Shown one piece after another: positions 1 to 34,915 of a DNA stretch of 38,533 bases (position 1 is the first letter of the stretch; each line of letters begins with the position of its first letter). Origin of the DNA: a virus. Taxonomy: Duplodnaviria; Heunggongvirae; Uroviricota; Caudoviricetes. A program made the translations under genes and the position numbers. The notes under the pieces are model-generated. The model was not told the DNA's origin. It saw only the letters and a program-made list of their open reading frames with translations, and searched no databases. The DNA is taken from IMG/VR virus record IMGVR_UViG_2531839666_000019; one strand, given 5' to 3'.

Positions 1-405
1 TCATTGGTTTACTCCCACGTTAATTGCCGCCATTGCGCTTTGAGCAATATCCATGTCTTGTTCAACGCTACCGCCGCTGATGCCAAGCCCGCCAAGCAAT
101 TTTCCGTCACGCCAGAGGGGGAAGCCGCCACCAAAAGTGACGACTTTGCCTTGCATATGGCTTTCGAGCCCGTAAAGCGGCGCGCCGGGTTGCACGGTAT
201 CAGCAAGTTTGTGGGTTGCCGTTTTCATCGCCACGGCGGTCCAGGCTTTTTTCGGTGCCAGTTCACTGCTGACCAACAGGGCATCAGGCATCCGCCAGGT
301 AACACTTTCTGTTCCGTTGGCATCAACAATGCTGATGACAACGGGATGATGCGCCGCGCGATAAATGTACCAATTTCCGTGAGATAAATTACATCGCTGC
401 GGCAT
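1..405 (-). CDS. GlcG/DUF336-family (heme-binding-like) protein; flanking host gene or terminal cargo
   Basis: 134-aa ORF with motif FGGGFPLWRDGKLLGGLGISGGSVEQDMDIAQSA typical of GlcG/DUF336; stop codon is at bases 1-3 and ATG at 405. Confidence 0.55.
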   Translation of the reverse strand: MPQRCNLSHGNWYIYRAAHHPVVISIVDANGTESVTWRMPDALLVSSELAPKKAWTAVAMKTATHKLADTVQPGAPLYGLESHMQGKVVTFGGGFPLWRDGKLLGGLGISGGSVEQDMDIAQSAMAAINVGVNQ

Positions 406-424
406 TTCAATATCTGAAAAAGAA

Positions 425-997
425 TTACAACTTAGCTTGAGTTTGGAGTTCCTCTACAGGGTGATAACGATAAATCGTCGATATACCGATATCGTAAATA
501 ATTGCCAACTGTTTCCTGCTATAGCCATTTTTGATCAGCCTTGCTATTTGTTCATGTTGCTCTTTTGTCAGTTTCGGACGGCGTCCGCCAATACGCCCCT
601 GTGCACGTGCTGCCTCAAGTCCGGCCAGTGTTCGTTCAACTATTAATTCGCGCTCCATTTCCGCTAAAGCCCCCATGACGTGAAAAAAGAAACGTCCCAT
701 GGGTGTTGACGTATCAATGCTGTCTGTAAGACTACGGAAATTAACCCCTTTTCCCCGCAGTTCCTCAATAAGAGTGATAAGGTGTTTCATGCTTCTGCCC
801 AGCCTATCCAGCTTCCAGACAACGAGCGTATCTCCTTCTGATAACGTTCTGAGCAGCTTTTTCAATCCCGGTCGGGCTGACTTTGTTCCGCTGATTTTAT
901 CCTCAAAAATCAGTTCACATCCTGCGCAGTTCAGTGCGTTTCGTTGTAAATCTGTATTCTGGTCATTTGTTGACACACGAATGTAGCCAATTTGCAT
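425..997 (-). CDS. serine recombinase, DNA invertase of the Gin/Pin/Hin/Cin family
   Basis: Protein begins MQIGYIRVSTNDQNTDLQRNAL (catalytic Ser in the YIRVST motif), has a resolvase core and C-terminal HTH, and is very close in pattern to phage Mu Gin; start trimmed from ORF-track 1192 to the ATG at 997. Confidence 0.9.
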   Translation of the reverse strand: MQIGYIRVSTNDQNTDLQRNALNCAGCELIFEDKISGTKSARPGLKKLLRTLSEGDTLVVWKLDRLGRSMKHLITLIEELRGKGVNFRSLTDSIDTSTPMGRFFFHVMGALAEMERELIVERTLAGLEAARAQGRIGGRRPKLTKEQHEQIARLIKNGYSRKQLAIIYDIGISTIYRYHPVEELQTQAKL

Positions 998-1051
998 GAA
1001 AAATATCCTCTTTGTTTTGTTAAAAATACATAGCTGGTATAGGTGGGAGTT

Positions 1052-1079
1052 AAGACGAAAACGTTGGTTTGGGGGAAGG
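1052..1079 (+). other. gix/hix-like crossover site A (variable left half, TT core at 1064-1065, conserved right half GGTTTGGGGGAAGG)
   Basis: Sequence GACGAAAACG-TT-GGTTTGGGGGAAGG matches the AAACC-NN-GGTTT architecture of Gin/Hin sites; the same right half recurs at sites B, C and, inverted, D. Confidence 0.7.
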
Positions 1080-1530
1080 CTCTGCACTACCTGTTGGTGT
1101 GCCTGTTCCGTGGCCGTCAGCCACACCGCCAGCAGGGTGGCTGAAATGTAACGGCGCAGCATTTTCTTCTGAAATGTACCCCAGGCTGGCAAAGGCTTAT
1201 CCGACCAATAAATTACCGGATTTACGGGGCGAATTTATCCGTGGCTGGGATGACGGACGAGGTATTGATGCAGGACGAGAGATACTTTCATTTCAGGAAG
1301 GCACTATCGTCTCCGGTTTTGATGATAATGATACTGGGGATATCAGTTCACTCAGCTCAACACAATACGGATTTGGTGACACTTTAACCTCTAATCAATG
1401 GGGGGCCATAAATGGCAAAAAGTGGATATTTGATGCATCCAGTAAAGGTGCCCAAAAATATGACTGGTGGGCTTATGTATCAGCTCGTCCGCGTAATATT
1501 GCATTTAATTACATCGTAAGAGCGGCATAG
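1066..1530 (+). CDS. silent alternative tail-fibre C-terminal cassette A (no ATG start; expressed only after inversion)
   Basis: Begins GEGSALPVGVPVPWPSATPPAGWLKCNGAAF, the same sequence that follows site D in the expressed tail fibre; ends with conserved RPRNIAFNYIVRAA; ORF-track start is TTG inside the gix site. Confidence 0.75.
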   Translation, partial: GLGEGSALPVGVPVPWPSATPPAGWLKCNGAAFSSEMYPRLAKAYPTNKLPDLRGEFIRGWDDGRGIDAGREILSFQEGTIVSGFDDNDTGDISSLSSTQYGFGDTLTSNQWGAINGKKWIFDASSKGAQKYDWWAYVSARPRNIAFNYIVRAA

Positions 1531-1551
1531 AAACGTTGGTTTGGGGGAAGG
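1524..1551 (+). other. gix/hix-like crossover site B
   Basis: ATAGAAACG-TT-GGTTTGGGGGAAGG, core at 1536-1537, immediately after the stop codon of cassette A. Confidence 0.7.
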
Positions 1552-1969
1552 CTCTGCACTGCCCGTTGGTGTGCCTGTTCCGTGGCCCTCAGCCACACCG
1601 CCAACAGGCTGGCTGAAATGTAACGGTGCAGTATTTTCTGCTGGGAAGTACCCCAAACTGGCACAGGCTTACCCCACCAATAAATTACCGGATTTACGGG
1701 GCGAATTTATTCGTGGCTGGGATGATGGACGTGGAGTGGACAATGGGCGAGCATTATTAAGCAGGCAGGAGGCTACAAATTTTTCTTATTACGGAGGTAA
1801 TTTCGATATTGGGTCTGGTCATTCAATCAATAACTATGACCAAATCGTTGACAACCAACCTGGATTCTCCCGTTTTTCATTTGCAGGTCCTTCGCGAGGC
1901 GATGGGGTTAATTTTGTGACCATTCGTCCTCGTAATATTGCGTTTAATTACATCGTAAGGGCAGCATGA
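1538..1969 (+). CDS. silent alternative tail-fibre C-terminal cassette B
   Basis: Same conserved N-terminal block and C-terminal RPRNIAFNYIVRAA with a different central region; starts in gix site B. Confidence 0.75.
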   Translation, partial: GLGEGSALPVGVPVPWPSATPPTGWLKCNGAVFSAGKYPKLAQAYPTNKLPDLRGEFIRGWDDGRGVDNGRALLSRQEATNFSYYGGNFDIGSGHSINNYDQIVDNQPGFSRFSFAGPSRGDGVNFVTIRPRNIAFNYIVRAA

Positions 1970-1990
1970 AAACGTTGGTTTGGGGGAAGG
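1963..1990 (+). other. gix/hix-like crossover site C
   Basis: CATGAAAACG-TT-GGTTTGGGGGAAGG, core at 1975-1976, immediately after the stop codon of cassette B. Confidence 0.7.
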
Positions 1991-2483
1991 CTCTGCACTA
2001 CCTGTTGGTGTGCCTGTTCCGTGGCCGTCAGCCACACCGCCAGCAGGGTGGCTGAAATGTAACGGCGCAGCATTTTCTTCTGAAATGTACCCCTGGCTGG
2101 CAAAGGCTTATCCGACCAATAAATTACCGGATTTACGGGGCGAATTTATCCGTGGCTGGGATGACGGACGGGGAATTGATTCAGGGCGTTTCTTGCTTAA
2201 TGCACAACCACATTCGGTTATGGATCATACTCACTATATGGAGTTATGGACCGGTGAAGGGCTTGCTGCAAACAGCACCCGTGCAGGAACAAACCCTGGT
2301 ATACTGGCTACATACGGTGATGGCGGGATTGTTAAAACAGATGAGTCAGGTGTAAAAGTTCCATCTTCACTACGTGCTATTGGCACTCGTGGTGTTTATA
2401 GATTAGGTGCCAACGGAGGGAATACAGGAACGGAAAACCGCCCCCGTAATATTGCGTTTAACTATATTGTAAGGGCTACTTAA
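1977..2483 (+). CDS. silent alternative tail-fibre C-terminal cassette C
   Basis: Same conserved block (about 125 bp identical to the expressed copy) and C-terminal motif; stop overlaps the tfa start (TAATG at 2481-2485). Confidence 0.75.
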   Translation, partial: GLGEGSALPVGVPVPWPSATPPAGWLKCNGAAFSSEMYPWLAKAYPTNKLPDLRGEFIRGWDDGRGIDSGRFLLNAQPHSVMDHTHYMELWTGEGLAANSTRAGTNPGILATYGDGGIVKTDESGVKVPSSLRAIGTRGVYRLGANGGNTGTENRPRNIAFNYIVRAT

Positions 2484-3100
2484 TGAATAATGCTGCTGCA
2501 GTACTTGATCAGAATGGTATCGCTATAACTGCAGGCGATATTACCGTTTATAACTACGATGCTGAAAACCGTGAATATCTCTCTGCCACTGTTGAATATC
2601 TCGCTTATGGTGTTGGAATTCCGGCTCACTCATGCATTGACGCGCCACCAGAAAAACGCCCCGGCTTCGCTGTCTGTCGTGATACCGACCAGAACATCTG
2701 GAAATATGTTCCAGACCACAGAGGCGAAACGGTTTACAGCACAGAGAATGGTAACGCTGTGCAAATCACACAGCCGGGAGATTACCCTTCAGATACGACG
2801 GTGAAACAGCCAGCTACCATCTATGATGTCTGGGATGGTGAGACCTGGGTGACAGATACGAGACGACAGCACGCAGCAGAACTGGAAGCTGCCGGAGCGC
2901 ATCGTCAGCAACTTGAGGAACAGGCAATGGCATCTGTTGAGCTTATTAATCTCAAACTACGAGCCGGACGCCGATTGACGCCCCAGGAGACGGAAAAACT
3001 AAACGCCGTGCTTGATTTCATAGATGCGCTTAATGCGACTGACATCAGCACTGCACCGGATATCAACTGGCCGGAAATGCCTCTGGCAGCAGCCAGTTGA
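2483..3100 (+). CDS. tail fibre assembly protein (Tfa/U-like chaperone)
   Basis: 205-aa protein with the typical Tfa N-terminal region; lies directly downstream of cassette C and converges on the expressed tail fibre. Confidence 0.75.
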   Translation: MNNAAAVLDQNGIAITAGDITVYNYDAENREYLSATVEYLAYGVGIPAHSCIDAPPEKRPGFAVCRDTDQNIWKYVPDHRGETVYSTENGNAVQITQPGDYPSDTTVKQPATIYDVWDGETWVTDTRRQHAAELEAAGAHRQQLEEQAMASVELINLKLRAGRRLTPQETEKLNAVLDFIDALNATDISTAPDINWPEMPLAAAS

Positions 3101-3106
3101 GTATAA

Positions 3107-4075
3107 TTAAGCCGCCCTCACGATATAGTTAAATGCAATATTGCGGGGGCGAGTTTCACTACCACCAGTGTTACCAATACTTCCTCGTGAATGAAGCGTT
3201 GGTGATGGAATCAAACTCCCTCCTGTATTTGCAGCATCAAGTCCCCGGCCTTGTGAATATGTTTTTTTGAAAATTGTGGCCAACTCCCATTCATCCTTTG
3301 TGTCATACCCATCGTTAGCTACAACAATATGGCGGTGTTTTTCCAGCATCCCAGTTTGAAAGCTCAATAAAGCACGTCCTGCATCAATCCCTCGCCCGTC
3401 ATCCCAGCCACGGATAAATTCGCCCCGTAAATCCGGTAATTTATTGGTCGGATAAGCCTTTGCCAGCCAGGGGTACATTTCAGAAGAAAATGCTGCGCCG
3501 TTACATTTCAGCCACCCTGCTGGTGGTGTTGCTGAGGGCCACGGAACGGGCACACCAACGGGCAGCGCAGAGCCTTCCCCCAAACCAAGGTTTTTGACAA
3601 ACAGCGCAGGATCAGGAATATCTGCGCCGTTCTGGTCTTTAGCCAGCTTTTCCGCCAGCTTGTTCAGTACCGTAGTCGCAAAGTTTGGATCATTACCGAG
3701 AGCGTCAGCCAGCTCTTTAAGCGTATCCAGTGTCTCAGGGGCGCTGCCTGCAAGCGCCGCAAGTGCTTTGGCCACAAACTCCGTCGTCGCCAGCTTTTTG
3801 CTGTTATCGCCATTTGCAGGTGTAGGTGCTGTTGGTGTGCCGGTGAATGCCGGACTGGCTTTCGGTGCATACTGGGCATGCGGGTCTGCTGCCGCGATGT
3901 GTTTCGCAAGGTCAGCCCCGCCTTTTTCAACCTGTTGCTTCAGGTACAGCGTGCGGCTGGCCAGTTGTTTACCCTGACGGTTAGAAATTCCGTCAGGCCC
4001 GCCCAGAACGGGGTCAGAGACCTCAATCTGGTAGATGCCGTCTTCCCACTGTGGGGTTTCAGGTAGATTTGCCAT
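3107..4075 (-). CDS. tail fibre protein (constant N-terminal part plus currently expressed variable C-terminal cassette D, 3107-3586)
   Basis: 322-aa protein; N-terminal tail-fibre region followed after site D by the GEGSALPVGV block and the RPRNIAFNYIVRAA terminus. Confidence 0.85.
   Translation of the reverse strand: MANLPETPQWEDGIYQIEVSDPVLGGPDGISNRQGKQLASRTLYLKQQVEKGGADLAKHIAAADPHAQYAPKASPAFTGTPTAPTPANGDNSKKLATTEFVAKALAALAGSAPETLDTLKELADALGNDPNFATTVLNKLAEKLAKDQNGADIPDPALFVKNLGLGEGSALPVGVPVPWPSATPPAGWLKCNGAAFSSEMYPWLAKAYPTNKLPDLRGEFIRGWDDGRGIDAGRALLSFQTGMLEKHRHIVVANDGYDTKDEWELATIFKKTYSQGRGLDAANTGGSLIPSPTLHSRGSIGNTGGSETRPRNIAFNYIVRAA
3573..3600 (-). other. gix/hix-like crossover site D, inverted relative to A-C, inside the expressed tail-fibre gene
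   Basis: Plus strand reads CCTTCCCCCAAACC-AA-GGTTTTTGACAA, a near-palindrome resembling hixL; core at 3587-3588; encodes FVKNLGLGEG of the tail fibre. Confidence 0.75.
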
Positions 4076-6161: not shown

Positions 6162-7037
6162 TTAAATTACGAAAACCTTGACGATAAGTTCTCCGTCTTT
6201 AGAAACTCTCTTCCCCTCAAGATCAGATTTCAGCCCCTCAGAATTAGTAATAAGCTGGTTCGGATCGTAGATGACACACCAGAGATTTTTGCAATCAGAG
6301 TGCCGACGATAATGCTCTATATCGATAATAAGTTCATCGCCGATTTTCTTTGCATGAGAACGATCACGAACAATTTTGGTTTCCAGTACTAATTTATGCG
6401 CAGGTAACAAAAAATCCATTCGAGTACTTGAACCAGCGTAACTTGGAGTAAACTCTTCTGGGCGGATGTCCTGAACCCATGGTCTGAGCAATGCATGGAG
6501 AAGGTCTTGCACGTCATATTCATTGCTAAAAGATAATGACTGGCTTCCTTTTCGCCTATGAGTAAGTGGATGCATTGCTCGCTGTAAGCCTTTGACCAGC
6601 CTTTCCAGTAAGTTCTCAACTTTTTCTGGCATTACTGGCTGTTGATAAGTAATTATGGTCTCTGGGTAATCCATATTGTGTGACGGGATGTGGCCTTCAG
6701 GCAACACTCGACCAAAACGATAATATCTAAGTCCATTCTCTTGTAACACAGCTTCAATTCTGTCTCGTTTTTCCTTCCATTCTGCATATTCGGGAGTACC
6801 TTCTTTTGGAGGTAAATCCATAAACTCCTCAATTACTCCGCCCAGAACTGCCAGACTATCTGTATCTGGATCTTGCCCTGCAAGAAATAACCAGTCTTTC
6901 CATTTTGTACTATGAGATCCTGCCGGAGGGTTTCCTGGTGCTCCCGAAGTAAGAAATAACGTATCTAAAGCTGCATGAGAGCCTGAGTTAGCAATGACAT
7001 CGCCAACTACTTTACATAAGGATCTTGATAACCGCAT
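6162..7037 (-). CDS. inserted accessory gene in the baseplate block; candidate PD-(D/E)xK-fold nuclease-like protein
   Basis: 291-aa ORF, visibly AT-richer than flanking genes, flanked by 71-bp and 81-bp spacers; C-terminal region contains D-x11-E-x-K (MDFLLPAHKLVLETKIV). Confidence 0.5.
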   Translation of the reverse strand: MRLSRSLCKVVGDVIANSGSHAALDTLFLTSGAPGNPPAGSHSTKWKDWLFLAGQDPDTDSLAVLGGVIEEFMDLPPKEGTPEYAEWKEKRDRIEAVLQENGLRYYRFGRVLPEGHIPSHNMDYPETIITYQQPVMPEKVENLLERLVKGLQRAMHPLTHRRKGSQSLSFSNEYDVQDLLHALLRPWVQDIRPEEFTPSYAGSSTRMDFLLPAHKLVLETKIVRDRSHAKKIGDELIIDIEHYRRHSDCKNLWCVIYDPNQLITNSEGLKSDLEGKRVSKDGELIVKVFVI

Positions 7038-20233: not shown

Positions 20234-21727
20234 TCAGCCGTTGTCACGCTCATGCAGACGCCCCCAGATATTTGCCACAAAGAGAATGCGGGCCAGCCGC
20301 TCCTGCAGATCGTCCGTGTTCATCTGAGGGTAGAGCTCCGCCAGTTCGCCCAGCAGCTCAGACGGGTTAACCCCGTTTTCGACCCGCCTGAACAGAGGTG
20401 CCAGGACGGGTTCCAGCGTGCCATTTAACACACCTCCGTTCATCAGAATGTCCAGCGCGTCGTCAAGCTGCTGTTGTGCATCATGATCGGCGCTTATCGC
20501 CTCGGCAAACTCCGCAGGCACTGCCCCGTCCGCAACCGGTGCATCAGAGAGGTCAATATCCCCCTCCTGCAGCTGGTACTCCCGCATGAAGTACTGCGGG
20601 GTCAGGCGTAGTCCCGCGCGGGTGAGTTTTTCGTCGCGGGTGGCACGGGTGTCATCAATGGCCTCCTGTTCCCACATGGCCCAGACCGGACACGGCACAT
20701 CGCCGAAGTTCAGGGTGACCACCGTTCTGATGACCTGATTCACTGCCGCCTGAATGATGTCCGCATCCGCATCGCGGATATCAGCCGTCACCTCCAGCCC
20801 GGCCTGTGCAGAGGCCTTGTTACTGTTCGCTTCCGTGGTCTGATTCTGACCGAGTAATGCAATGGAGATCTCACTGCGTGACAGCGTGATCAGCTCGCGG
20901 AATACCTCGCTGCTGTCCGCCTTGCCATCCGCGGCTTTGAGTTCAATGCTGCTGTCATCGGGGATGGCGGCCACAGCGTCCTCCACCATCTGCTCCATGG
21001 AGTCCAGCAGTTTTTCAATCTCTGCATCATTTGCACCCCTCGGGTGCTTACCGATCACCCACGGGGAGCCAAACTTTTCGGCAAAGCGGAGCCAGAATTT
21101 CATCCCGCCTTTCTTGAAGGCGACCGGCCAGAAGCACATGGACAGGTCCGGGAAACCGTAAGGATTGTCATACGAGGCATCCTGTGCCGGCACCACGAAT
21201 TTTGACGGTGACAGCAGCTCACCCTCCACACCCGCATCACGCGCCCGGAAGCGCAGGCAGTTGTCCGTATCAAACTGAAACCACTCAGGCGGTTTGCCGA
21301 CAATATCCGTCACCGCCCACGCCCTGACCGAACGGCCCCACATGATTTCACAGGGCTGATACCCGTAGAGCACGGCATCGCTCATCTCACCGATGATGCG
21401 GGACAGATCCAGATCGTCGAGCATGTCGCGGATGAAACGGAAGACCCGGGCAGAAGCGTGACCGCGCTCCAGTCCACGCTCCAGCGATTTGAGCGCTGCT
21501 TTACGTCTGCGGATACAGCCTCCGACCAGCGGGTCGGTGCGCAGTTCGCGGTAGATACGGATATCCCGTCCCTGAGCCTTGAGAATGGGATCAGGATTGG
21601 GCAGATACATGCCCAGTCCGTAAAAGTCGATCGCGCGGCTGCGGGAGGCAATCTGCGCGGTCAGTGATTTCTGAGGCTCAGAAAAAGCAACAAATTCATC
21701 GGGTGAAACCCAGATACCCCTCGCCAT
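20234..21727 (-). CDS. portal protein (Mu gp29-like, DUF935-like)
   Basis: 497-aa ORF directly after the terminase large subunit, typical size. Confidence 0.8.
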   Translation of the reverse strand: MARGIWVSPDEFVAFSEPQKSLTAQIASRSRAIDFYGLGMYLPNPDPILKAQGRDIRIYRELRTDPLVGGCIRRRKAALKSLERGLERGHASARVFRFIRDMLDDLDLSRIIGEMSDAVLYGYQPCEIMWGRSVRAWAVTDIVGKPPEWFQFDTDNCLRFRARDAGVEGELLSPSKFVVPAQDASYDNPYGFPDLSMCFWPVAFKKGGMKFWLRFAEKFGSPWVIGKHPRGANDAEIEKLLDSMEQMVEDAVAAIPDDSSIELKAADGKADSSEVFRELITLSRSEISIALLGQNQTTEANSNKASAQAGLEVTADIRDADADIIQAAVNQVIRTVVTLNFGDVPCPVWAMWEQEAIDDTRATRDEKLTRAGLRLTPQYFMREYQLQEGDIDLSDAPVADGAVPAEFAEAISADHDAQQQLDDALDILMNGGVLNGTLEPVLAPLFRRVENGVNPSELLGELAELYPQMNTDDLQERLARILFVANIWGRLHERDNG

Positions 21728-31968: not shown

Positions 31969-33738
31969 ATGAATGCTGCCCTGACTGAACGACTGGTTTA
32001 TGTCGCCCGCGCGGCACGTGACGCGGGGCATGGTAAACGCGGTGCAATATACGACGCTGCCTGTGCTGAACTTGGCATGTCCCGCGCCACTCTGCTGCGC
32101 AGGCTGAAGGAGGTATCTGTGACTGATAAACGCAAAAAACGCGCCGATGCCGGGCGCAGCGCCCTGACCCGCGACGAAGCCGCGCTGATATCTGCCACAC
32201 TGCGTGAGGCCACCCGCAAGAACGGTAAGCGTCTCTATTCCATCGCAGATGCAGTGGAAACCCTGCGGGCTAACGGCTTTATCTCCGCAGGCAGAACAGA
32301 TGAAACCACCGGTGAGTTTTTCCCGTTGTCCGAAGATGCCATCAGTCGTGCCTTGCGTAACTATGGCCTGCACCCGGAACAACTGGATGCCCCTGCGCCG
32401 CATACCGAAGTGGCCAGTCTGCATCCCAATCACGTCTGGCAGATTGATGCCTCGCTCTGCACGCTTTACTACCTGAGCAATGGACACAAAGGGCTGCAGG
32501 TGATGGACAGCGCGAAGTTCTACAAGAATAAACCCGCTAACCTTGCCCGTATCGCCAGTGACCGCGTGTGGAGTTACGAGATTACCGACCATGCCAGCGG
32601 CTGGATTTACGTTGAGTATGTGACGGGTGCGGAATCCGGTGAGAACCTGTGTTCTGTGCTTATCAACGCCATGCAGGAGCGTGGCGGCGCAGACGTGCTG
32701 CACGGCGTGCCGAAAATACTCTATCTCGACCCCGGCTCGGCAAACACCGCGGGTATGACGAAAAACATGTGCCGCTCACTGGGCATCGACCTGATAGCGC
32801 ACAAGCCGCATAACGCCCGCGCCACCGGACAGGTGGAAAAGGCGCGTGACATTATCGAACGCAAGCTGGAGCCGGGTCTGAAATTCCGGCCGGTTCACAG
32901 TCTGGAAGAACTCAACGCGCTGGCCGCGAAATGGCGTAGCCACTTTAACGCAACAGCTGTTCACAGCCGCCACGGTAAAACCCGCACGGATATCTGGCTG
33001 AAGATTACTGCTGAGCAGCTGAAAAAAGCGCCTTCCGTTGAGGTATGCCGTGAACTGGCTGTGGCGACACCAGAACTCCGCAAAGTCACGCCAAAACTTC
33101 GTGTCTCGTTCCGGGGCACTGAATTTGACGTATCAACGGTACCGGGCGTACTGGTTGGTGAAAAACTGATGATTACCCGTAACCCATGGCGCAGCGATGT
33201 GGCACAGGTGGTTCTGACCGGTGAGGACGGCCACGAGACGTTCTTCCTGGTCGAAGAGGTCAGAAAGAACGAGTTTGGCTTTGCTGAAGGCGCGGCGGTA
33301 TTTGGCGAAAGTTACAAAGCCCTGCCGGAAACACCGGCACAGACGGCGGCAAAAGAAACCGAAGCGCTGGTCACCGGTACAGACAACGCCGCAGATGCAG
33401 CTGCCGCACGCAAGGCGAAGGCGCTGCCGTTCGGCGGGCGGCTTGACCCGTATAAACATATTGATGACGCCACACTTCCGGCCTGTATACCGAAGCGCGG
33501 TCAGGTCTCTGATGTACGCAGACCGCGCACTGAACAACGTCCCATGACTCATGTGGAGGCCGCGAAAGCCCTGCGCGATAAGTTCAGCGCCGACGGCCTT
33601 ACCTGGACGCCGGAACATTACCGCCAGTTAACGGCACAGTACCCGGACGGCGTACCGGAAGCCGCACTGGATGAAGTAATGGCCACGCTGACCACGCCGG
33701 CCCGCAGCAGCGTTATCAGCATTGTTAACGGCAACTGA
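31969..33738 (+). CDS. DDE transposase (Mu A-like, integrase-core family)
   Basis: 589-aa protein with DDE-type residues in HVWQIDAS and YLDPGSAN; followed by an overlapping AAA+ partner gene. Confidence 0.8.
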   Translation: MNAALTERLVYVARAARDAGHGKRGAIYDAACAELGMSRATLLRRLKEVSVTDKRKKRADAGRSALTRDEAALISATLREATRKNGKRLYSIADAVETLRANGFISAGRTDETTGEFFPLSEDAISRALRNYGLHPEQLDAPAPHTEVASLHPNHVWQIDASLCTLYYLSNGHKGLQVMDSAKFYKNKPANLARIASDRVWSYEITDHASGWIYVEYVTGAESGENLCSVLINAMQERGGADVLHGVPKILYLDPGSANTAGMTKNMCRSLGIDLIAHKPHNARATGQVEKARDIIERKLEPGLKFRPVHSLEELNALAAKWRSHFNATAVHSRHGKTRTDIWLKITAEQLKKAPSVEVCRELAVATPELRKVTPKLRVSFRGTEFDVSTVPGVLVGEKLMITRNPWRSDVAQVVLTGEDGHETFFLVEEVRKNEFGFAEGAAVFGESYKALPETPAQTAAKETEALVTGTDNAADAAAARKAKALPFGGRLDPYKHIDDATLPACIPKRGQVSDVRRPRTEQRPMTHVEAAKALRDKFSADGLTWTPEHYRQLTAQYPDGVPEAALDEVMATLTTPARSSVISIVNGN

Positions 33739-34915
33739 GGAGGGAAACATGCTGGTACTGAAGCAGCAACTGAAAGAGGCCCGTATTCCACAGGCGGTGG
33801 TGGCGAGAGCTGTCGATGTTTCTGAGGCCACGCTGGCCCAGATTGTGAATCATAACGCGTGGCCCCGCACCAGCCCCGGAGAAGTGCGCCGGCGTCTTGC
33901 GTCCTGGCTGGAAAGTCAGGGGATTGATACAGCGAAGAGTTTTGATGCTGTACAGGGCGCGGCCACTCCCCGTACAGCGGGTACCACAGATAAAACGAGC
34001 CTCAGTGAGGAAGAGAATATGTTACTCAAAAAACAGGTGTTATTCCCGGCAACCAAAAAAGCGTTTGGTCTTTTCCGTGACCCGTTCGCCGACGAAGCCA
34101 TGCAGGGTTCTGATGATGTGTTCACCACCCCGGACATTCGCTACGTGCGTGAGGCGTTGTACCAGACAGCCCGTCATGGTGGGTTTATGGCCGTCATCGG
34201 TGAGTCCGGTGCGGGTAAATCCACGCTGCGCCGCGACCTGACTGAACGTATCAACCGCGAGAATGCGCCGGTAATTGTTATCGAGCCATACATCATCGCT
34301 ATGGAAGACAACGATGTGAAAGGGAAAACCCTGAAGGCAGCAGCTATTGCCGAAGCCATTATCAGTACCATCGCACCACTGGAAAGCATCAGACGCAGTC
34401 AGGACGCCCGCTTTCGCCAGTTGCATCGCGTCCTGAAAGACAGCAGCCAGGCGGGGTTCAGCCACGTTCTGGTGATTGAGGAGGCCCACAGTCTGCCCAT
34501 TCCGACACTGAAACACCTCAAACGCTTTTTTGAGCTGGAGTCCGGTTTCAAAAAACTGCTGTCCATCGTGCTGATTGGCCAGCCGGAACTGGCGACAAAA
34601 CTGTCTGAACGCAATATGGAAGTCCGTGAAGTCGTTCAGCGCTGTGAGGTGGTCGAACTTCTGCCTCTGGACAATAACCTTGAAGAGTTTCTGACGTTCA
34701 AACTGCAACGGGCAGGTAAACAACTGACGGACATTATGGACGCCAGTGCAGTGGATGCCATACGTGCCCGCCTGAGCAATCCGGGAAGTCATCGTAAAAA
34801 TATGGTCAGCCTGTTGTATCCGCTGGCCGTCAGTAACCTGGTGATAGCCGCCATGAATCTGGCCGCTGAAATCGGGGTTCCACAGGTCAACGCTGACGTT
34901 GTCAAAGGGGTTTAA
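33722..34915 (+). CDS. transposition ATPase (Mu B/TniB-like AAA+)
   Basis: Walker A VIGESGAGKST and Walker B HVLVIEEAH; N-terminal HTH. Confidence 0.8.
   Translation: MLTATEEGNMLVLKQQLKEARIPQAVVARAVDVSEATLAQIVNHNAWPRTSPGEVRRRLASWLESQGIDTAKSFDAVQGAATPRTAGTTDKTSLSEEENMLLKKQVLFPATKKAFGLFRDPFADEAMQGSDDVFTTPDIRYVREALYQTARHGGFMAVIGESGAGKSTLRRDLTERINRENAPVIVIEPYIIAMEDNDVKGKTLKAAAIAEAIISTIAPLESIRRSQDARFRQLHRVLKDSSQAGFSHVLVIEEAHSLPIPTLKHLKRFFELESGFKKLLSIVLIGQPELATKLSERNMEVREVVQRCEVVELLPLDNNLEEFLTFKLQRAGKQLTDIMDASAVDAIRARLSNPGSHRKNMVSLLYPLAVSNLVIAAMNLAAEIGVPQVNADVVKGV

Follow-up and report, generated by a model that had tools for sequence, protein, structure and literature searches.

The target sites of the Din family of serine DNA invertases are collected in Table 3 of PMC3241671, in which six sites are listed for the Min system of p15B, a P1-related plasmid prophage of Escherichia coli 15T-, where they lie in the 3' part of a tail-fibre gene. 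In the G segment of phages Mu and D108, the invertase gene gin adjoins the invertible segment at the prophage end, and each orientation is provided with its own assembly gene (U or U'). A three-site 'shufflon' has been described in a P2-like prophage of enteropathogenic E. coli (EPEC) E2348/69, in which four isomers coexist in single-colony cultures, as seen by sequencing and polymerase chain reaction (Goldberg et al. 2014, PMC4272514). Here we analyze positions 425-4075 of a 38,533-nt stretch of viral DNA (Caudoviricetes; IMG/VR record IMGVR_UViG_2531839666_000019), the whole of which is called the window below. It is very probable that this region, at the end of a transposable Mu-like E. coli prophage, is a multiple DNA-inversion system of the Min type, and the tip of the tail fibre of this prophage is swappable among four cassettes via a four-site inversion switch. 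The mechanism of the switch is already textbook: the site layout, the invertase and the logic are those of Min, Gin and the EPEC three-site locus, and nothing new about the mechanism is learned beyond these systems.

Each crossover site in the window (A to D, Table 1) is composed of a head, which opens a cassette, a 2-bp core and a tail, which is the end of whatever DNA precedes the cassette. The half-sites were read by eye against the family consensus of PMC3241671 in a 12-nt register, the consensus being printed with 11 characters; on this reading the head halves fit fully, the tail from the constant part of the fibre gene fits at 6 of the 7 specified positions, and the other three tails fit at 4-5 of 7. 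The Min system of p15B has the same head half-site TTCCCCCAAACC and the same AA core, and its tails are likewise of the form CGTTTT... In the orientation of the published table (TTCCCCCAAACC AA CGTTTTCGTCTT), site A is 1 nt away from mixMI''L' of p15B, site B is 2 nt away from mixMr''N' and site C is 3 nt away from two mix sites, whereas the published sites closest to site D are pixL and pixR, with 4 mismatches each (PMC3241671). As in p15B, there are more than two sites in the 3' part of the fibre gene, in both orientations, so that four cassettes can be joined to one 5' part; the two loci differ in that four sites are present here, in a chromosomal transposable Mu-like prophage with a short fibre of 322 amino acids. 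The label Min-type is given for the number of sites, their layout and their mix-type sequences; the invertase was compared with Gin and with the enzyme of a P1-like phage. The latter phage has the same layout of stop codon, AAACG, TT and GGTTTGGG, and its invertase is 93% identical to that of the window.

The invertase shares 74% identity with Gin of D108, and its gene likewise adjoins the invertible segment at the end of the prophage. Mu, however, has two sites with a TC/GA core and a 34-36-bp inverted repeat, as opposed to four sites with a TT/AA core and repeats of ~215 nt, and a single assembly gene is present here instead of one for each orientation. The EPEC E2348/69 locus has the same heads, a tail identical to AGCATGAAAACG (the B type) and the same block of cassette, tail fibre assembly gene (tfa) and cassette, and 178 residues of its invertase are identical to those of the window's enzyme. 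It differs in having three sites and four variants, compared with four sites and 12 arrangements here, in its long P2 H-type fibre with mixQ''R' as the constant-part site, and in the type of prophage. The Hin/hix system of Salmonella also has 26-bp sites, an AA core and conserved residues for contact with Fis, and the constant-part tail TTGTCAAAAACC resembles the hix half-site TTATCAAAAACC; Hin, however, inverts a promoter between two sites, whereas coding cassettes are exchanged here. The R64 shufflon likewise produces alternative C-termini of one protein through nested inversions, which is an analogy only. Its recombinase, Rci, is a tyrosine recombinase acting on 19-bp sfx sites, and an R64-type shufflon was rejected for this locus because the only recombinase present is a serine enzyme according to Pfam.

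Crossover sites, cassettes and invertase

The original prediction, made from the sequence alone, was that the crossover sites are embedded in coding sequence and that each has one conserved and one variable half. Both points hold for the four 26-bp sites, which share the half-site GGTTTGGGGGAA. The 14-mer GGTTTGGGGGAAGG occurs exactly four times in the window, at 1066, 1538 and 1977 on the plus strand and at 3573-3586 on the minus strand, and its inner motif AAACSWWGGTTT is found at these four places only, against a chance expectation of 0.02 in the window. The same asymmetric core is present at all four sites, reading TT on the plus strand at A, B and C and on the minus strand at D. Cassettes A, B, C and D each contribute a head, consisting of their first 20 nt, which are identical in all four. 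The tails are supplied by the flank on the invertase side, by the 3' ends of A and of B, and by the constant part of the fibre gene; after shuffling, it is the tail that defines the site.

At site D the DNA reads AAA AAC CTT GGT TTG GGG GAA GGC (K N L G L G E G), in which the Leu codon CTT ends with the two bases of the TT core. This frame confirms that the conserved half encodes Gly-Leu-Gly-Glu-Gly at the junction between the constant and variable parts of the fibre. Because the constant tail ends with CTT and every head starts with GGT TTG GGG GAA GG, any cassette joins in frame. In D108, gixL (TTATCCAAAACG TC GGTTTACAGGAA) is located in gene S at ...PLFIQNVGLQE..., which is homologous to ...PALFVKNLGLGE... 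here, and residues 137-167 of the constant part match residues 144-174 of Mu S. The embedding of a site in coding sequence is therefore an inherited and known feature.

The spacing of stop codons and cores was only partly as anticipated. The stop codons of A and of B are each followed by AAACG and then by the TT core, so the gap is exactly 5 bp both times rather than 5-7 bp, and the rule fails for cassette C, which ends with TAATG, overlaps the assembly gene at its start and is followed by no site. It is correct that the left half of a downstream site is formed by the 3' end of the preceding cassette, the tails of sites B and C consisting of the last bases of that cassette plus AAACG. The cassette ends are alike in all (RPRNIAFNYIVRAA or ...RAT), which is why these two 'variable' tails resemble each other. 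The three weak tails all share AAACG and differ from each other only at distal positions. Site D is the only one near a full palindrome, as had been noticed: its left half matches the reverse complement of its right half at 8 of 12 positions, compared with 5 of 12 for each of A, B and C.

The conserved half is real as well, yet it is no isolated 14-mer, because it opens a repeat of 212-232 nt (~215 nt) that is 85-95% identical among the four cassettes (1066-1277, 1538-1762, 1977-2189 and 3374-3586). In Pfam searches this repeat encodes a phage tail Collar domain, located at residues 174-221 of the 322-amino-acid fibre protein, and the cassettes therefore diverge only ~70 codons past the crossover point.

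Table 1. Features of the inversion locus and its left border in the window
Feature	Position	Strand	Remarks
Host gene, GlcG/HbpS family, truncated	1-405	-	Left end of window
Serine DNA invertase gene, 190 amino acids, Din/Gin/Min type	425..997	-	Pfam Resolvase + HTH_7
Candidate Fis-dependent recombinational enhancer, in 5' end of invertase gene	913..976	-	Putative
Crossover site A	1052..1077	+	Tail L AAGACGAAAACG; core TT 1064-1065; head GGTTTGGGGGAA
Silent cassette A, 154 codons from core, stop TAG 1528-1530	1066..1530	+	Open reading frame (ORF) 1069-1530; Collar domain
Crossover site B	1524..1549	+	Tail GGCATAGAAACG (3' end of A); core TT 1536-1537; head GGTTTGGGGGAA
Silent cassette B, stop TGA 1967-1969	1538..1969	+	ORF 1541-1969; Collar domain
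Crossover site C	1963..1988	+	Tail AGCATGAAAACG (3' end of B); core TT 1975-1976; head GGTTTGGGGGAA
Silent cassette C, stop TAA 2481-2483	1977..2483	+	ORF 1980-2483; Collar domain
Tail fibre assembly protein gene (tfa), 205 amino acids	2483..3100	+	Pfam Caudo_TAP 2e-26
Cassette D, now in frame with constant part	3107..3586	-	C-terminal part of 322-amino-acid ORF 3107-4075
Crossover site D	3575..3600	-	Tail TTGTCAAAAACC (constant part); core TT (plus strand AA 3587-3588); head GGTTTGGGGGAA
Constant 5' part of tail fibre gene, 163 codons, ending ...KNL	3587..4075	-	ORF reading

In identical prophages, the silent cassettes are entered in RefSeq as 'phage tail protein' genes of their own or as pseudogenes, each beginning with a TTG within the site, at positions corresponding to 1069, 1541 and 1980 in the window. 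Direct reading of the window gave no Shine-Dalgarno-like sequence before these TTGs, and the scan for promoters and terminators gave no promoter-like site reading into the cassettes. The separate gene calls are probably annotation artefacts, and these 'phage tail protein' entries are explained by the switch.

The invertase matches Pfam Resolvase (4.4e-51) and HTH_7 (1.4e-13) and aligns over its full length with the Gin crystal structures 4m6f and 3uj3 (E = 5.6e-90), with the catalytic Ser9 in YIRVSTNDQ. It has the build of the Din enzymes, small serine recombinases of ~190 amino acids in which the catalytic domain is N-terminal, with the nucleophile at Ser9/10, and the helix-turn-helix is C-terminal. 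In Hin, Gln151, Arg154 and Leu155 contact Fis, and these residues are conserved in Fis-dependent invertases (PMC3798978); Gln150, Arg153 and Leu154 of the window's enzyme (...HEQIARLI...) align with them. Judged by its sequence, the enzyme belongs to the Fis-dependent serine DNA invertases that make up the Din family (Hin, Gin, Cin, Pin, Min).

In this family, the recombinational enhancer comprises two Fis sites and is normally placed within the 5' end of the invertase gene; here, the first ~120 nt of that gene probably contain a Fis-bound enhancer. The 5' end of this gene is conserved with that of D108 gin at the DNA level: where the two enzymes have the same amino acid, the same codon is used in 22 of 32 cases within codons 1-40 (878-997 in the window) and in 33 of 97 cases within codons 41-183 (P = 0.0008 for an excess of synonymous conservation, Fisher's exact test), which argues for a constraint on the DNA itself in this part of the gene. 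Two 15-mers of the form G...C are located here, at 962-976 and 913-927, with a spacing of 49 bp, and the centre of the nearer one is 95 bp away from the site A core. We take them as candidate Fis sites by analogy with the layout of the hin enhancer. Their match with a Fis consensus is unconvincing, and the enhancer is given only as a candidate for this reason. In Salmonella, the hin enhancer is ~100 bp from hixL (PMC3798978), and, going by its title, Kahmann et al. 1985 (a reference of PMC3798978) puts the stimulating site within gin.

By homology with Hin and Gin, dimers of the invertase would bind the four 26-bp sites, and two oppositely oriented sites would be cleaved at the 2-bp TT/AA core. 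The strands would then rotate and rejoin, so that the DNA between the two sites is inverted and heads are exchanged between tails. The predicted outcome is four alternative fibre tips in 12 arrangements of the blocks A, B and C-tfa-D'; the three inversions envisaged in the original prediction do not stand, since a state-space search through oppositely oriented sites yields these 12 arrangements.

Natural isomers and the crossover interval

To survey natural isomers, a megablast search was made against complete E. coli genomes, with the blocks A, B and C-tfa-D' denoted a, b and X. The relatives found match the window at 99.5-100% identity in the invertase, the cassettes, the assembly gene and the constant part, but differ from it in arrangement. 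The window has the arrangement a b X and CFIAFB20190167 has b a X; X b' a' is present in three isolates of strain 8178, X' b' a' in FEA3, b X' a' in 3-72, DEF10, JNEC-KY202 and GABEEC10, and a X' b' in DEF2. Thus 6 of the 12 reachable arrangements are observed among near-identical prophages, with the junctions at the sites, and each tail is observed with three or four different heads. The switch thereby explains why assemblies of otherwise identical strains differ at this locus.

Eight 'mouse-type' genomes show four arrangements, for which at least four inversions are required. In each of these genomes, the 215-nt head of a given cassette is unchanged whatever tail precedes it, and the base that ends each tail (G or C) is retained; the heads can first be told apart at +21. 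The exchange therefore took place within the 22 bp TT GGTTTGGGGGAAGGCTCTGC, an interval from tail position -1 to head position +21 that contains the core and sits at the edge of the homology. The natural isomers in this way map the crossover interval without experiment. Together with the gix-homologous position of site D, they support the view that the four sites are the recombination sites of the adjacent Gin/Min-type invertase.

Several points weigh against this assignment. The crossover is mapped to 22 bp over which the sites are identical, rather than to the dinucleotide, and cleavage exactly at TT would follow from the homology with Hin and Gin. The enhancer and Fis sites are putative, and no sigma-70-like promoter of the invertase gene turned up in the promoter scan. 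The inversion of the window's own copy is deduced from relatives, which, like the result of the promoter scan, could also be understood if the locus were a frozen relic, in which the cassettes are leftover duplications and no more recombination takes place in this prophage. We regard a relic as extremely improbable, as the invertase ORF is intact and its exact sequence is present on 825 public contigs, all four cores and the first 20 nt of the four heads are identical, and strains with the same insertion site and identical cassettes differ in their arrangement.

A further point against an invertase acting at the sites comes from the lineage inserted in the pdu operon (the window, CFIAFB20190167 and JNEC-KY202), in which the heads are mosaic and their exchange points fall at +39..51 and +57..67, so that some recombination has taken place in the repeats away from the core. 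Such exchange points, 39-67 nt into the repeat, would be expected if the inversions arose between the inverted repeats of ~215 nt by RecA-dependent homologous recombination and not at the 26-bp sites, and repeats that are 85-95% identical over this length are long enough for it. However, no chimeric head is seen in the eight mouse-type genomes with their four arrangements and at least four inversions, and every exchange there is confined to the first 20 nt of the ~215, at the edge of the homology, which is the least likely place for homologous recombination; we estimate that evenly spread crossovers would give this with a chance below about 1e-4. The mosaic exchanges are also not reciprocal, which fits gene conversion rather than inversion, and an intact invertase and Min-type sites are present. 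It is thus very unlikely that the inversions are RecA-dependent, and homologous recombination was rejected as the main driver on the positions of the junctions. The mosaic heads suggest gene conversion among the repeats, as a slower side process rather than as the mechanism of inversion. The anticipated exchange at the TT/AA core and nowhere else hence agrees with 8 of 8 mouse-type genomes, in which it is confined to the 22 bp containing the core, but not entirely with the heads of the pdu lineage. In the window, the head of A is C-like until about +72; the heads of the other lineage are fixed.

Cassette usage in public assemblies

The matching E. coli records number 1,633; usage was assessed by looking up exact sequences on public contigs, which are not independent samples. 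All four fusions of a cassette to this constant part (Sc) occur in public assemblies, in unequal numbers. Cassette A is found fused (Sc-A) on 127 + 20 contigs, plus 47 + 6 with other members of 317 amino acids, and silent on 79, plus 503 with a close variant; cassette B is fused (Sc-B, present for example in strain DEF2) on 224 and silent on 306; cassette C is fused (Sc-C) on 30 + 10 and silent on 280 + 54; and cassette D is fused (Sc-D) on 29 and silent on 299.

It had been proposed that the imperfect sites A-C differ in recombination efficiency and bias which fibre variant is produced. In the alternative, the three weak tails recombine about equally, and the unequal representation arises from the combinatorics of the 12 states, selection and clonal sampling, which could yield the same picture. 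Counting states over the 12 arrangements gives A:B:C:D = 4:4:2:2, so that a ratio of 2:2:1:1 is predicted and A and B are favored two to one by combinatorics only. The weak tails moreover have the core-proximal AAACG in common, and in none of them is the distal TTC triplet of the consensus complete, the tails of A and B retaining only its C; each tail has been joined to three or four heads; and the contig counts are not independent. The observed ratio of about 147-200 : 224 : 40-45 : 29 is nevertheless skewed beyond 2:2:1:1, which is only suggestive. Unequal efficiency also has a precedent, because the proportions of isomers are unequal at the EPEC three-site homologue, where one inversion is near 90:10 and the other varies between colonies (PMC4272514). 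We give the alternative of equally recombining tails slightly less than an even chance, and a bias in the fibre variant due to imperfect half-sites is plausible.

Assembly gene and prophage context

The invertible region has a single fibre assembly gene, located between the convergent cassettes C and D in the block 1977-3586. In 6 of the 12 arrangements this gene follows the fibre gene on the same strand, downstream of it, and in the other 6 it is antisense. It is co-oriented in all C-expressing states, in half of the A- or B-expressing states and in none of the D-expressing states, and in the window's own state, in which D is expressed, it is antisense to the fibre gene. One could imagine that the orientation of the C-tfa-D' block acts as a second switch, which we think improbable; if so, and if the assembly protein is needed and its gene lacks a promoter of its own, an inversion would both pick the tip and turn the maturation of the fibre on or off. 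Relatives carry 2, 3, 5 or 6 cassettes with the same site layout, always around the C-tfa-D' core block.

The remainder of the window contains an rve-type transposase (31969-33738), an AAA ATPase (33722-34915) and a Mu-type portal protein (20234-21727), with early and late genes in divergent orientation. The truncated host gene in which the same prophage is inserted varies from strain to strain (pdu/GlcG, a SWIM-domain gene beside yehR, hyc, fepE and otsA), and it is therefore a transposable, Mu-like phage. The switch would set the likely host range of this transposable prophage, which is common in E. coli. With NCBIfam, neither the invertase nor the fibre or assembly protein could be placed in a specific family, all matches being far under the cut-offs; a PDB search with the assembly protein gave no match, and a megablast search against phage genomes gave no full-length relative of the locus.

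Upstream of the fibre gene are the P2-type baseplate genes I, J and W, as identified by Pfam. An ORF of 291 amino acids (6162-7037, minus strand) is located just downstream of baseplate W in gene order. A gene of the same length at this position in the matching prophage of CFIAFB20190167 carries the annotation PD-(D/E)XK nuclease domain protein, and strain 2014C-3075 has baseplate protein V directly at this position; the ORF may be an inserted accessory gene.

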